Virus record (IMG/VR): IMGVR_UViG_2700989521_000020
Source: a virus
Taxonomy: Duplodnaviria > Heunggongvirae > Uroviricota > Caudoviricetes
Reading direction: 5' to 3' (one strand)
DNA length: 40,488 bases
Every line of letters begins with the position of its first letter. Position 1 is the first letter of the stretch. The position numbers were made by a program. Below are positions 24,001 through 30,000 of this stretch, piece by piece.

Positions 24001-27000
24001 AAAGCAGCTGGGTGCTGGAGTACGCTGCAGGCAACGGTGCGGCTCTGTTACAGAAAGGGGGGCAGATTCGCTGCCGCTTTAAGGCTTCGGGAGCGCTGGC
24101 TGCGAACCAGTATGTTATGGCGTTTTACTGGCCGGTATCGTCACTGCCACAGGGCGTTGTCCTGACCGGCGATGGGGGGAATAACCTGCTGGCAGCGTTC
24201 TACATCCAGACGGATGCAAAAGACCTGAATGTGATGTACCACAATGCGAAAGTGGCGACAAACAACCTGAAACTGGGAAGCTTTGGCGCATTTGATAACG
24301 AATGGCATACGCTGGCTTTCCGCTTTGCCGGGAATAACAGCCTTCAGGTGACGCCGGTTATTGATGGTCAGGATGGCACACCGTTCACGCTGACGCAGTC
24401 ACCGGTCAGTGCATTTTCGGCGGATAAGTTGCATGTGACAGACATTACCAAAAGTGCGACTTACCCGGTACTGATAGACAGCATTGCGGTGGAAGTGAAT
24501 AACGCGGACGCCGCTGCATGATAAAAAAAGCCGCCAGTTACCGGAATGGACTGGCGGTGGTAATACCTATGGAGAAAAAATAAAGGAACGATACTTTCGT
24601 ACTCTGTTTTTTTAAATGAAAACAGTTCTTATTGTCAACAATAACGGAAAGAAATTATGACATTTCTGAACCAGTTAATGCTGTACTTCTGTACGGTGGT
24701 CTGTGTGCTGTATCTCCTTTCGGGTGGATACCGGGCCATGCGTGACTTCTGGCGCAGACAGATTGACAAAAGGGCCGCTGAGAAAATCAGCGCCAGTCAG
24801 TCAGCCGGAAGCAAACCCGAAGAGCCGCTCGTTTAGCGGCAACTTTCTTAATCACACCTTTCGACGAGAAAATCCCATGTCAGAAATTACATCCCTGGTC
24901 ACTGCTGAAGCAGTGAAGGACGTCCTGCGCTCTGAAGAAGTCCTGAGCGCACTGAAACAGAAACTTCGCCATAACCTGGAAGCGCGTCTTGATGCAGAAG
25001 TGGATGCCATTCTGGATGAACTGCTGGGCGCACCGGCAGCTCCGGAGCCGGAAGGCATCGCGGGAGAGGGGAGTGCTTCAGATAGCGGTGACCCCACACC
25101 TGACAGCGACATGATGATGTAAGCATGCGTCAGGGACCATCGGTGTGTGCCGGTGGTCTTTTTTATTGTTGTGAGCTTCCGGATTGCGGGAGGCGGGGTA
25201 TGTACCAGATGGAAAAAATCACAACAGGTGTGTCATACACCACGTCAGCGGTGGGAACGGGCTACTGGTTCCTGCAGTTGCTGGACAGGGTTTCCCCGTC
25301 TCAGTGGGCGGCAATAGGCGTGCTGGGGAGTCTGCTGTTTGGTCTGCTGACGTACCTGACGAACCTGTATTTCAAAATCAGAGAGGACCGGCGTAAGGCG
25401 GCGCGGGGAGAGTAAGCTGATGAGCCGGAAATTCCGCTATGGTTTATCAGCTGTCGTTCTGGCGCTGATTGCCGCAGGGGCTTCTGCGCCTGAAATCCTG
25501 GATCAGTTTCTGGATGAAAAAGAAGGTAACCACACCACGGCATACCGTGATGGTGCGGGGATCTGGACCATCTGCCGTGGAGCCACCCGGGTGGATGGTA
25601 AGCCTGTGATTCCTGGCATGAAGCTGTCGAAGGAAAAATGCGACCGGGTTAACGCTATCGAACGGGATAAGGCGCTGGCATGGGTGGAGAAAAACATCAA
25701 AGTGCCACTGACTGAACCCCAGAAAGCGGGTATTGCGTCATTCTGTCCTTACAACATTGGCCCGGGTAAGTGTTTCCCGTCGACGTTTTATAAACGAATT
25801 AATGCAGGAGATCGAAAAGGTGCCTGCGAAGCGATTCGCTGGTGGATTAAGGACGGTGGCAGGGACTGCCGTATTCGCTCAAATAACTGTTATGGTCAGG
25901 TATCCCGTCGTGACCAGGAGAGCGCGCTGGCGTGCTGGGGAATCGACAGATAAGCAGAATATTTTGCTGATAAATGACGCTTGCTCACGCGGGCGGATAA
26001 CACGAAATCCTGCGAACTGGCAAAATGCAAGTGAATAAAGTCAGGAAGATTGTTTTACGCAGAGGCACCGTAATGGTGTCTTTGTCATTTCTGCGCTTCG
26101 CACAAGCGTAAATAAACCAAAGAACCTTTCAGGATGAGCCCTGGTGGATAACCGGCAGTGGTCTGGTTAACCCTCTTTGGGCTGGTTATTCCTGTGCGCA
26201 GGGTTCATCACTAAAAGGAAATAACCGATGCATATGATGACCGTGCCGTTTCACGGCGATTCTCTTTATGTGGTTAACCATAATGGCGAACCGTATGTTC
26301 CAATGAAACCGATCGTTGAAGGGGTGGGGCTGGACTGGAAAACACAGTATCGCAAGTTAAAACAACGGTTTAATAGCTGCATGGTCGAAATGACCATTCA
26401 GCTACCAGGTGATACCCAACGTCGCCCTGTTATCTGCCTGGCTTTACGTAAACTTGCTGGCTGGCTTCAGACTATCAGCCCAAATAAGGTTAAGCTCAAA
26501 ATCCGAGACAAGGTGATCCAGTATCAGGAAGAGTGCGACGATGTTCTCTATGAATACTGGACGAAGGGTTTTGTCGTTAATCCCCGTCGAATGAGTGTGA
26601 TGGAAGAACTCAATCAGGCTTGCGCTGACATGAAACGGGATAAAAACATTGCCAGTGTGTTTGCTACCGGGCTGAATGAGTGGAAACAGGTTAAAGCCGC
26701 GCATGTATCAAAAATCCGCACATTGATAAACGAAGCGAATCTGCTGATTGATTTTGTCCTGGCTGATACAGGCAAAGGGAAAATAACAAAGGCGGATTGA
26801 TGGAGTGGTGGCTAATGATATCGGATAAACTCATAACGCTGGCGAAGATCCTCTGTGTAATCGTCGGCATTTCATTTTTAGTCATGCTGGTTGCCATTTT
26901 CTTTTCCACCGCCTGGAGAGTCCTGACGTTATCGGGACTGGTGGGGTGAAAGAGAGATGAACCGTGTTCTGTGTGTGGTGATTATTGTCCTGGCGGTTGG

Positions 27001-30000
27001 CTGTGGTGCGCTTAGTCTGGGGCTGAATCATTACCGTGATAACGCCATCGCCTACAAAGAGCAGCGCGATAAAGCCACATCCATCATCGATGATATGCAG
27101 AAGCGGCAACGTGATGTAGCAGAACTTGACGCCAGATACACAAAGGAGCTTGCTGATGCTAATGCGACTATCGAAAGTCTCCGTGCTGATGTTTCTGCTG
27201 GTCGTAAGCGCCTGCAAGTCGCCGCCACCTGTGCAAAGTCAACGACCGGAGCCAGCAGCATGGGCGATGGAGAAAGCCCAGGACTTACAGCAGATGCTGA
27301 ACTCAATTATTACCGTCTCAGAAGTGGAATCGACAAGATAACCGCGCAGGTTAACTACCTGCAGGAATACATCAGGACGCAATGCCTGAAATAATTTTTT
27401 TGCAAATCACAAAGTCCATTTAATGAGCCCCGCGATGCGGGGCTTTTTTATGTCCGCAGTAAACGCGCTTCACACGCGCGACTTATGAACACAGAACCTT
27501 TCAGGATGACCCTTGAGGATGCCGGTTTGGTGATCGGTGCCTTTCTGTGGGCCGGAATCCTGTGTGACAAGGTTCATCACTTAAAGGTGTGCACTGATGA
27601 ATTATCCAACTATCGTTAACGGCATCGATTTTCGAGATCTGATTTTTGTGGCAAACAACGATCCGGTTACAGATTCTTTTATGGTGGCAAAAGCATTTGG
27701 AAAGCTGCCGAAGAACGTAGTTCGTGACATTGAACGAACCATAGAAGCTTGCCCTCCTGAGTTTGATACAAAGCTCAACTTTGAGCTTTGCTATAAAAAC
27801 AATGAGTTACAGAATGGTAAGCCGCAAAAATTCTACCGTCTCCGCAAGGATGGGTTGATGCTTTTGGTTATGTCCTACACCAAAAAAGAAGCAATGCGTA
27901 TCAAAATTGCTTACATCAACGCATTTAACTGGATGTACGCCATGCTTCAGGTTGGTCATCGTCAATTTGAAGAAGAGAGAAATGCCGTAATGCTGGAGTA
28001 CATGAAAGAGAAGGATGTTGCCAGCATGTCAGGTCGCCTGCTAAATCGCTGGGGCAAAATTAAGAAGCCACAGCTGCTGGCTAGAATTGAACGCCTTGAA
28101 CAGCACGGGCAAACCGTAATCCCCGGACTCATCAATTAACGGCAGTACCGCGAAACAACCCAAGCCAGTAAGTGGGGAAATAACACTGGCAGCCACTGAA
28201 AGATGAACCTCCAGCCTTATGGCAAAAAAGATTCTTTGTGGTGGCGGACTGATGGAAAGACATCGGTTATTGCAGAGGCCATTCAATGAGTGGTCTTGAC
28301 AATGGCTTATACCCTACACGGGATAACTTAATTGATATCCTTTTTAACGGATAAAGGCATTTCAGCCTGACATAGCCATGCGCCGCATCGTCGCCGTATT
28401 CCCGCATTAACAGAGACCGCAGCCACCTTATCTGCGTGAGTGTGCGGGGATAATCAAAAACGATGCACACCGGGTTTTCTCATTTTTCACGAGATGGGAG
28501 CGATTTCCCGCGAAGCCGCCTGTCCGGTGCGGTGGTGGAAGAAACCGGATAAAACAACCGCATTGTGCAAATATCGATCAAATATGGTGCTGCTGTGTGA
28601 AATCTGAAAAATCACAGCGGTCATTATGCATCAGTTTTTAACACAGGACGTCAGAACGTGACATGGCAAAGCTGGACTGGAAAAAGCTGGAGCAGGCATT
28701 CCGACGCGAACATGCCGAAACGGGAATAACATTACTGGACTGGTGCCGGAAGAAAAAGATTAATTACAACACCGCCAGAACCCGTATAAAAATGGGCAAA
28801 ATCGATCATGAAATTGATCATAAAACCGATCATGAAATCGATCATGACATCTCAGATGAAGAACCCTGCAATGACGCGGGTTCCGGCGATGAAAAATGCG
28901 CAAAAAACTCTGAAAAAAACTGCGCAAATTCGGCAGAAACGAAACGGATTCGTGGTTCCCGACTTTTACCTCCTTCAAACGCTTTTTCTCAGCGAAACAC
29001 CCACGCCGTAAGACACCGTGGATATGCGAAGTATCTTGAGGCAGATAACCTCATGGATGATGCGTCCGACATGGTGCTGTTCGATGAACTGGTGTTCACC
29101 CGGGCCCGCGCACTTTCAGTAACTAAGGCACTTAAAGGGATGTTCGCCGACCTGGAAGAGGCAACTGACGTGGAAACCCGTGTTGCTCTTTACGACAAAA
29201 TACTCAAAGCTGAACAGGCCCTTGACCGGAATATTGCCCGTATCGAGTCAATTGAACGCTCATTGCTGACGCTGGACGTCCTGGCTGAGACAGCACCAAA
29301 ACTTCGTGCTGACCGGGAAAGAATCAACGCCGCCAGAGATAAACTCAGAGCTGAAACCGATATTCTGACCAGCCAGCGTCGGGGCGTTGTTACGCCTGTC
29401 AGTGACATCGTGTCATCGCTGCATGAAATGAGTAATTCGGGGAGACTGGATGACATTCCGGAAGAATGAACCGCGATGTGATGAGCCGTCAGAAATGACC
29501 GAGGCTGAACAACGTCTGTTCATCATGACTAAACTGAGCAATCCCTGGTGGCGGCTCAATCATCTCTACAAAATACAGAACGAAAAAGGTGAACTGGTCA
29601 CCTTCAGAATGCGACCGGCGCAGCGCCAGTTGTTCCGGAGCATGCACAATAAAAATATTATCCTGAAAGCGCGCCAGCTGGGATTTTCCACAGCCATTGA
29701 TATTTATCTTCTCGACCAGGCATTATTCATTCCGCATCTCAAATGCGGGATCGTCGCTCAGGATAAACAGGCTGCCAGTGAAATTTTCCGCACAAAAATT
29801 GCTGTACCGTTTGATCATCTCCCTGACTGGCTGAGAGCCTCATTCACCATCGTTGAACGTCGTAGCGGTGCCAGCGGTGGCTATATCCTGTTTGGGCACG
29901 GCTCGAGTATCCAGGTGGCAACCTCATTCCGTTCAGGTACGGTGCAGCGCCTGCATATCTCAGAGCACGGCAAAATTTGCGCAAAATATCCGGCTAAGGC

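Follow-up and report, generated by a model that had tools for sequence, protein, structure and literature searches.

Two copies of a structured leader in the phage late operon

The DNA analyzed here (the window; 40,488 nt) is the record IMGVR_UViG_2700989521_000020 of a virus of the Caudoviricetes. With Shigella phage POCJ13, a 933W-like Shiga toxin (Stx) phage, it shares 99.9% identity. The genes of its late operon are arranged in the order holin, lysozyme, Ant-like gene, Rz/Rz1, rha and terminase genes. Upstream of both the ant-like gene and rha lies a copy of the same leader element, designated copy A and copy B, respectively. This leader was found to be a conserved, doubly pseudoknotted RNA fold of the sense strand, in which the closing helix pairs an anti-Shine-Dalgarno segment with the Shine-Dalgarno (SD) sequence of the downstream gene.

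A duplicated leader of approximately 95 bp had been proposed from the sequence of this DNA (the original prediction), and the duplication proved to be real. The shared 17-mer AGAACCTTTCAGGATGA occurs exactly twice in the window (26121-26137 and 27493-27509), where approximately 0.05 matches are expected by chance even if three mismatches are allowed. The end motif GGTTCATCACTWAAAGG was likewise found twice, at 26202-26218 and 27571-27587, and its AAAGG ends 9 nt before the ATG in both cases (26228 for the ant-like gene and 27597 for rha). Copy B had been placed correctly to within 1 nt (27493-27587), whereas copy A actually spans 26121-26218 and had been given a start that was 10 nt too low. 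The conserved ends are complementary in both copies, as had been supposed, with CCTTT/AAAGG, AG/CT and GATGA/TCATC as the matching segments.

The similarity goes well beyond these short end motifs. The middle of the element is approximately 75% identical between copy A and copy B, and the differences are compensatory (CCCUG:CAGGG in A, CCUUG:CAAGG in B). In addition, the two copies resemble each other for approximately 35 nt farther upstream than had been described, into a second hairpin and a linker. In the full unit, which measures approximately 135 nt rather than 95 bp, an intrinsic terminator is followed by a small hairpin (P0), a linker of 7 nt and a long imperfect hairpin (P1-P7); the unit also includes two covarying pseudoknot helices (PK1 and PK2).

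Conserved secondary structure and pseudoknots

Both copies fold into the same long imperfect hairpin, the base of which is CCUUU:AAAGG (Table 1). For the analysis of related sequences, a covariance model comprising P0 and P1-P6 (R1) was built from 20 homogeneous seed sequences with a hand-checked structure, which was independently reproduced by RNAalifold. When 95 sequences were simply aligned with MAFFT, RNAalifold gave a poor structure, as the subtypes were misaligned; this was remedied by the homogeneous-seed model and re-alignment. R1 yielded 111 matches (100 distinct) in the collected loci, including much more divergent second and third copies within the same prophages. Copy A was matched at 26090-26231 with 78 bits (E = 2e-17) and copy B at 27462-27600 with 135 bits (E = 2e-32).

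In the R1 alignment of the 100 distinct sequences, 93.4% of the cells are paired and 22 of the 32 helix pairs have changed on both sides. The covariation score was reached by none of 500 shuffles, and controls with slid partners were only 33-44% paired. This alignment was made to fit the model, but the compensations are directly visible in the raw sequences, where GAUGA:UCAUC changes to GGUGA:UCACC or GAUAA:UUAUC, and AG:CU to GG:CC. GAUGA:UCAUC is replaced by GGGUGAGCCA:UGGCUCACCC in the Klebsiella type, and the entire lower stem reads CAGAAAGUUGAGCCUG:CAGGCUCAAUUUUCUG in one subtype. The stem of P0 covaries as well, with CG in 84, UA in 13 and UG in 2 sequences at one pair, and was found in the variants GCGC/GCGC, GCGU/ACGC, GCGCC/GGCGC, GUGUC/GACAC and UGCAC/GUGCA. 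G·U pairs are in excess over A·C in the helices (41 and 7, respectively), which indicates that the sense strand folds. The suggestion that the element is a structured, cis-regulatory RNA leader with paired ends is supported by these data, since P1-P4 are kept by compensatory changes in approximately 100 distinct relatives, on the sense strand and with the SD sequence included in the fold.

Two further helices connect the loops. PK1 is formed by the 7-8 nt just 5′ of P1 and the 3′ part of the apical loop, and is 87% paired with a covariation of 0.28 (0.08 in shuffled alignments). PK2 joins the P0 loop to the asymmetric 3′-strand internal loop between P5 and P4, and is 97% paired with a covariation of 0.31 compared to 0.08. 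In both cases none of 500 shuffles reached the observed value. The columns of PK1 and PK2 are unpaired in the model, so the alignment is not fitted to them. At least 10 distinct PK1 variants were identified, among them CUCAGAA:UUCUGAG, CCAAGAA:UUCUUGG, CCACAGAG:CUCUGUGG, CGCAGAG:CUCUGCG, CAGAGAG:CUCUCUG, CCCCGAG:CUCGGGG and CCACCGAG:CUCGGUGG. The variants of PK2 include UCUCAC:GUGAGA, UCGCAC:GUGCGA, CGCUC:GAGCG, CGCCC:GGGCG, UGCCC:GGGCA, UCACCC:GGGUGA and CCGCA:UGCGG. Both complementarities are present in every subtype.

Since PK1 and PK2 use no nucleotides of P0-P7, the sequence lets them form together with the hairpin. By hand count, P5, P6 and PK1 amount to approximately 19 bp compared to approximately 19 bp for P1-P4, and PK2 plus P0 amount to approximately 11 bp, spanning from the hinge to the start of PK1. 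These lengths fit a side-by-side helix bundle, a geometry which we infer from the counts. The 5′ arm is highly conserved in sequence at GA(A/G)CCUUUCAGG. Where the SD sequence deviates, the anti-SD deviates with it, as in CCUG:CAGG of an Escherichia coli prophage (L074, 1347-1489).

Distribution of the leader and its downstream genes

Relatives of the leader are abundant in related phages. By BLAST the element was identified in approximately 320 phage records, including 933W, BP-4795, ST104 and ST64B. A megablast search with copy B alone detected it in 806 of 5,426 complete E. coli genomes (approximately 15%), in up to 8 places per genome, and it was never annotated among these matches. A scan of viral contigs for a pattern with the end motifs resulted in 120 loci with 43 distinct variants and lengths of 87-94 nt. 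The pattern used for bacterial genomes was loose, and approximately 80% of its 120 loci were chance matches, which were removed by flank rules. Divergent members occur in Klebsiella phages, and species-representative genomes with the element were found for Raoultella, Xenorhabdus, Providencia, Erwinia, Pantoea, Edwardsiella, Tatumella, Entomohabitans and Salmonella. In total, the 100 distinct relatives span at least 11 enterobacterial genera.

The genes behind the leader (the cargo) belong to many families, namely KilA-N, KilA-N with P63C, P22_AR_N, Rha, KilAC/ANT, AntA, two types of HNH_3 endonucleases and unknowns. A divergent subtype (K-type) precedes a TerB-like ‘moron’ protein. Whichever cargo follows, the start codon is always located 7-11 nt after the AAAGG, and the similarity between phages ends exactly at the SD sequence, behind which the cargo is interchangeable. 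The link of leader to cargo is modular. The original assignment to two regulators within the lysis cassette was thus too narrow; the element can rather be described as a portable leader that precedes late-operon accessory genes of many kinds. It shares its strand with the late genes, and its upstream neighbors vary (spanin, lysozyme, Q, tail genes, a toxin-like gene or an HNH gene).

In 89 of 99 distinct members, P0 is preceded by a strict hairpin with a T-run, the end of which is 6-48 nt away; most of the others have an imperfect one. No sigma-70 promoter was found by a promoter scan between the terminator and the leader or inside the hairpin; as the spacing from P0 to P1 varies, a search for −10 and −35 hexamers at fixed spacing is unsuited here. 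A moron in the sense of Juhala and Hendrix is an extra gene that is inserted among conserved late genes and brings its own promoter and terminator. The cargo is variable and situated between late genes; its terminator lies upstream rather than downstream, and a sigma-70 promoter from terminator to leader was not detected.

Phages with at least two leader copies carry different subtypes with different PK1 and PK2 sequences, as observed in L044, L086, L087, L014, L009, L074, L029, L005, L021, L031, L138 and the window (CCAAAGA/CGCAC in A and CACAGAA/UCACAC in B). The leader is shared by the ant-like gene and rha as originally described; the proposed coordination of the two genes is conjectural, and the two copies actually differ in their pseudoknot sequences. 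The differences could keep co-resident copies from mis-pairing on one transcript or from recombining, which is statistically not secure with approximately 12 loci and subtypes tied to insertion sites. One natural chimera was observed (L047, 2517-2655), in which an A-type P0 and linker precede a B-type hairpin. It has one mismatch each in PK1 and PK2 and a lower score of 126.5 bits, and points to recombination inside the leader.

In L074, the K-type leader and its TerB-like gene are preceded by matches to Rfam isrK and C4 and by a tRNA (12854-13041 and 9989-10058, both on the minus strand), so the region downstream of Q is packed with structured RNAs. STnc100 was also found downstream of a K-type leader copy in this prophage.

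Comparison with known RNAs

No Rfam 15 family reached its gathering threshold over the elements, with C4 (RF01695), isrK (RF01394), riboswitches and self-cleaving ribozymes among the families covered. Within the window, only STnc100 and sRNA-Xcc1 did so, both elsewhere. A permissive Rfam scan of 25950-27650 returned only weak, terminator-driven hits, and in seven loci with divergent members the Rfam hits (isrK, C4, tRNA and STnc100) were located outside the elements. A sub-threshold match to asX2 of Xanthomonas at 27425-27503 on the minus strand (32 bits; gathering score, 70) stems from the hairpin of the Rz terminator read on the opposite strand and was judged to be due to chance.

The general principle of the fold is known from other systems. 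In the hairpins that sequester the ribosome binding site (RBS) of the T4 genes e, soc and I-TevI, and in the ‘fold-back inhibition’ of IS10, the 5′ sequence pairs with the SD and read-through transcripts remain untranslated. Those hairpins are simple and are relieved by an internal promoter, whereas the present leader has two pseudoknots and no internal promoter is evident. In temperate phages, c4 of P1, CA of N15 and sar of P22 likewise occlude the RBS of ant at the RNA level; they act as antisense RNAs in trans, in contrast to the anti-SD of the leader, which lies in cis, and the Rfam C4 model does not match the elements. The SAM-II and preQ1-II/III riboswitches are compact and pseudoknotted, and the SD forms part of their closing helix. 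Compared to these, no match in sequence or structure was found, and the leader is larger and obtains its second loop-loop helix from a separate 5′ hairpin.

The nearest characterized analogue, which is not a family member, is isrK-orf45-anrP of Gifsy-1. There, read-through of a terminator yields an antirepressor mRNA that is translationally silent through its structure (PMC4825925). Both systems comprise a terminator, a structured leader and an antirepressor-like gene downstream of Q, and both leaders are conserved as nucleotides and not as amino acids (PMC4825925). Activation in Gifsy-1 requires a small RNA (sRNA) acting in trans and translation of orf45 (PMC4825925), while no such open reading frame (ORF) is conserved in the phage leader. 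As a homologue, isrK-orf45 was rejected: R1 had no hit in the whole of Gifsy-1 at E ≤ 10, and the region is devoid of the P0, PK and hairpin motifs.

One member of the family has been detected as an RNA. Phage P22 carries a leader directly upstream of rha (L246, 706-843; 52.5 bits, E = 2e-12), and P22F, an 89-nt small RNA of P22 that accumulates during infection, was reported in 2026 with its function unknown (PMC13397905). The published 89 nt sit inside the R1 match and are the same element; their sequence is the core of the leader hairpin. In that report P22F is an RNA defined by read coverage only, without a structure, pseudoknots, a family, SD occlusion or a link to other cargo (PMC13397905). 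The leader is a new RNA family, which was partly glimpsed as P22F. Its general kind, an SD-occluding cis leader, is known, and its double-pseudoknot architecture is unusual.

A probable translational lock and alternative functions

We consider it probable that the leader is a cis-acting translational lock on accessory genes of the late operon. It would be transcribed as an mRNA leader of approximately 135 nt within this operon, and the cargo would be reached by Q-modified polymerase reading through the terminator that precedes the leader. The RNA would fold compactly into P0, the long bent hairpin P1-P7, PK1 and PK2, and the basal helix P1, with CCUUU as anti-SD and AAAGG as SD, would bury the RBS of the downstream gene. 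In this way, potent accessory (‘moron’) genes would be kept silent or low despite read-through of the late transcript. These are the Ant-like antirepressor and Rha here and KilA-N, AntA, KilAC, HNH or TerB-like proteins elsewhere. Their release would be specific, by processing 3′ of the anti-SD or by a ligand or protein. Occlusion of the SD in the folded state is a prediction: across 102 members, the median probability of an unpaired SD was 0.03, and removal of the 5′ arm raised it approximately 15-fold, to approximately 0.5. Translational repression of the cargo, and its relief by a processing event, a ligand or a protein, may be inferred from this arrangement. The accumulation of P22F, which covers the hairpin, in P22 infection (PMC13397905) is an experimental hint in favor of this reading.

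Several observations weigh against the lock. P1 is nearly invariant and few covariation events support it, which is due to the constraint on the SD and to the search patterns, which fixed P1 in most sequences. For K-type members, which are associated with TerB, the SD comes out 0.3-0.6 unpaired when nested structures are predicted. The sigma-70 scan revealed no promoter that would explain expression in the lysogen. Two pseudoknots and an extra hairpin exceed what is needed to hide an SD and point to a specific effector or to another activity. Finally, P22F is a discrete RNA with its ends inside the leader, which suits a processing product or trans-acting RNA as well as a stable decay remnant.

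So complex a fold, together with the discrete P22F species, suggests a specific release, and both a riboswitch and a ribozyme or other processing element were kept as live rivals. In their broadest form, which we regard as a tentative possibility, they would make the leader a new class of riboswitch or of self-cleaving or processing RNA in classical lambdoid phages (P22, 933W and relatives). By responding to a signal from the infected cell, or by self-cleavage, it would unlock accessory genes of the late transcript (antirepressor-like, nuclease or other), and orthogonal pseudoknot ‘addresses’ of each copy would allow independent folding on the same RNA. A riboswitch-like sensor alone, with an aptamer for a small molecule, ion or protein that tightens or loosens P1 and tunes cargo translation to the state of the infected cell, is somewhat unlikely, and would refine rather than contradict the lock. 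It is suggested by the compact fold with every loop engaged in a covarying tertiary helix, by the SD within the closing helix, an architecture compatible with translational riboswitches of the SAM-II and preQ1 types, by the strong sequence conservation of the 5′ arm and by the retention of one leader ahead of unrelated cargo. This cargo, however, consists of regulators and nucleases and not of enzymes or transporters and suggests no ligand; furthermore, no riboswitch in Rfam matches the leader, and no alternative structure with a free SD and covariation of its own was found. We regard it as unlikely that the element mainly serves to have the late transcript cut, as a self-cleaving ribozyme or by host RNase III, E or P, and thereby activates or stabilizes the downstream message. 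Cleavage immediately 3′ of the anti-SD would release the SD, and the 5′ end of P22F (between GG and AAUGGG) lies exactly between the anti-SD segment (the 5′ strands of P1 and P2) and P3, while its 3′ end is located 6 nt before the AUG of rha. The same reading is favored by the predicted gain in SD accessibility on removal of the 5′ arm, and the new ends would be protected by the upstream terminator hairpin and the downstream P0. Nested pseudoknots are typical of small ribozymes, and ribozymes are common in prophages. On the other hand, no ribozyme class of Rfam matches, the putative cut site lies within a predicted helix rather than a splayed junction, and RNase III has no need of pseudoknots. 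The ends of P22F, moreover, derive from small-RNA read coverage rather than from end-mapping.

That the repeat is a DNA-level homology ‘linker’ at the 5′ boundary of the cassette, by which phage recombinases swap cargo and to which the RNA fold is secondary, would agree with the end of similarity exactly at the SD, with the interchangeable cargo and with the chimera L047. As a main function this is quite unlikely because pairing, and not sequence, is conserved: recombination needs identity, yet the sequence drifts with pairing kept in seven helices and two pseudoknots, the G·U bias marks one strand, and the exchange in L047 costs one mismatch per pseudoknot. For an excised, P22F-like hairpin that acts as an sRNA in trans, for instance by base-pairing to SD regions in the cell's other leader copies, there are the discrete and abundant RNA in P22 infection and the presence of as many as 8 copies in one E. 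coli genome, whose 5′ arms and SD strands are nearly identical. It appears very doubtful all the same, as P22F lacks the anti-SD segment and has all its loops engaged intramolecularly, and as the copies within one phage differ in their PK sequences, which suggests insulation over cross-talk. A small protein or leader peptide encoded by the repeat (gp44 of 44 aa in copy B), with translation coupled to that of the cargo as for orf45-anrP in Gifsy-1, is highly improbable and the least probable of these readings. The ORF is annotated in POCJ13 and falls in a PHROG, in the variants of 88, 91 and 94 nt the CAGGAUGA AUG shares its reading frame with a UAA at the SD, and the upstream ORF of Gifsy-1, which is conserved as nucleotides and not as amino acids, is needed for translation of the antirepressor (PMC4825925). 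Against this, the lengths of 87, 89, 90 and 92 nt break the frame, and length differences not divisible by 3 within the range of 87-94 nt speak against coding. In copy A the frame is closed by a stop after 5 codons, the substitutions are compensatory for RNA pairing rather than synonymous, the ORF has no preceding SD and the Gifsy-1 region fails to match R1. As a family-wide feature, a leader peptide is largely refuted by the frame-breaking length variation. No Pfam match was found for gp44, which is probably a spurious ORF call propagated through databases; its PHROG match reflects only nucleotide conservation or the clustering of similarly mis-called ORFs.

Four further candidates were rejected or gave no match. 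Binding of CsrA was discarded, as conservation of the motifs CAGGAUG and GAGGAU does not extend to the K-type, L087 and L009 subtypes. Inspection of the leader by eye revealed no match to the consensus of a LexA box or an IHF site. An attC-like recombination site is contradicted by the lack of core sites and by the tight link to the SD, which argues for RNA. The predicted target of 24B_1, a microRNA-size RNA of Phi24B, lies within the coding region of d_ant and outside the leader.

P22 and the Stx phages are among the best-studied temperate phages, yet no annotation marks the leader ahead of ant, rha and kilA in them. As a translational lock, it would explain how potent regulators ride on a very strongly transcribed late operon without being produced in bulk. 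It would also offer a handle on the timing of Ant and Rha action, which bears on the cross-induction of prophages and on Shiga toxin release. As a ligand sensor or self-cleaving RNA, it would represent a new functional class of RNA. The RNA family is ready for submission to Rfam, and its natural variants supply designs for compensatory mutants of P1, PK1 and PK2.

Features of the two leader regions and additional observations

The structural elements of both copies and the neighboring genes are listed in Table 1.

Table 1. Positions of the leader elements and adjacent genes in the window.
Feature	Position	Strand	Description
Lysozyme gene	25420-25953		Upstream neighbor of copy A
Copy A terminator-like hairpin	26064-26090	+	GGCACC-GTAAT-GGTGTC with T-rich tail; between lysozyme gene and leader; pairing checked
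Copy A P0	26092-26110	+	UGCGCUU / AAGCGUA; loop CGCAC 26099-26103; pairing checked
Copy A PK1 5′ strand	26117-26123	+	CCAAAGA; pairs with apical-loop UCUUUGG 26174-26180; 7/7 Watson-Crick
Copy A long imperfect hairpin P1-P6	26125-26218	+	Minimum free energy (MFE) −43.1 kcal/mol, z = −3.1; pairs verified
Copy A P1	26125-26129 with 26214-26218	+	CCUUU with SD AAAGG
Copy A P2	26131-26132 with 26211-26212	+	
Copy A P3-P4	26133-26143 with 26199-26209	+	
Copy A P5	26146-26148 with 26190-26192	+	
Copy A P6	26149-26156 with 26181-26188	+	
Copy A PK2 3′ strand	26194-26198	+	GUGCG; internal loop P5/P4; pairs with P0 loop CGCAC; 5/5 pairs
Ant-like gene (cargo A)	26228-26800	+	P22_AR_N plus weak ORF11CD3 domains
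Rz/Rz1	26957-27394		Between ant-like gene and leader B
Copy B intrinsic terminator	27425-27450	+	GAGCCCCGC-GAT-GCGGGGCUU with U6; after Rz/Rz1
Copy B P0	27464-27480	+	CGCGC / GCGCG; loop UUCACAC 27469-27475; pairing checked
44-codon ORF (hypothetical protein gp44 of POCJ13)	27485-27619	+	phrog_16173; inside leader B; ends 22 nt past the rha ATG
Copy B PK1 5′ strand	27490-27496	+	CACAGAA; pairs with apical-loop UUCUGUG 27543-27549; 7/7 pairs
Copy B long hairpin P1-P7	27497-27587	+	MFE −36 kcal/mol; pairs verified
Copy B P1	27497-27501 with 27583-27587	+	CCUUU with SD AAAGG
Copy B P2	27503-27504 with 27580-27581	+	
Copy B P3-P4	27505-27515 with 27568-27578	+	
Copy B P5	27516-27520 with 27557-27561	+	
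Copy B P6	27522-27525 with 27552-27555	+	
Copy B P7	27529-27532 with 27538-27541	+	
Copy B PK2 3′ strand	27562-27567	+	GUGUGA; internal loop P5/P4; pairs with UCACAC 27470-27475 of P0 loop; 6/6
rha (cargo B)	27597-28139	+	Phage_pRha plus ORF11CD3 domains

Between the ant-like gene and Rz, a strongly hydrophobic ORF of 50 codons was identified at 26797-26949 on the plus strand, overlapping the ant stop codon. It had no Pfam match and could encode a small membrane protein of the lysis cassette. The two Rfam matches above the gathering score elsewhere in the window, which are unrelated to the leader, are STnc100 at 22155-22368 (plus strand; 195 bits) and sRNA-Xcc1 at 16869-16952 (plus strand; 80 bits).

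An unrelated hairpin of 75 nt, CCTTTCAGGGACCGCTGTGAACCC...CCCTGAAAGG, was picked up by chance, through the loose pattern for bacterial genomes, in near-identical form in loci L144, L150, L157, L174, L203, L231, L239 and L240 of the Halomonadaceae. It occurs in several genomes of Halovibrio, Vreelandella and Halospina, is flanked by short inverted repeats each time and looks like a repeat of the repetitive extragenic palindrome (REP) or miniature inverted-repeat transposable element (MITE) type.

Within the small-terminase-like gene of the window, four tandem 12-nt repeats (AAAATCGATCAT-like) were found at 28798-28857 on the plus strand, which encode a repeated D-H-E/K-I/T tetrapeptide.

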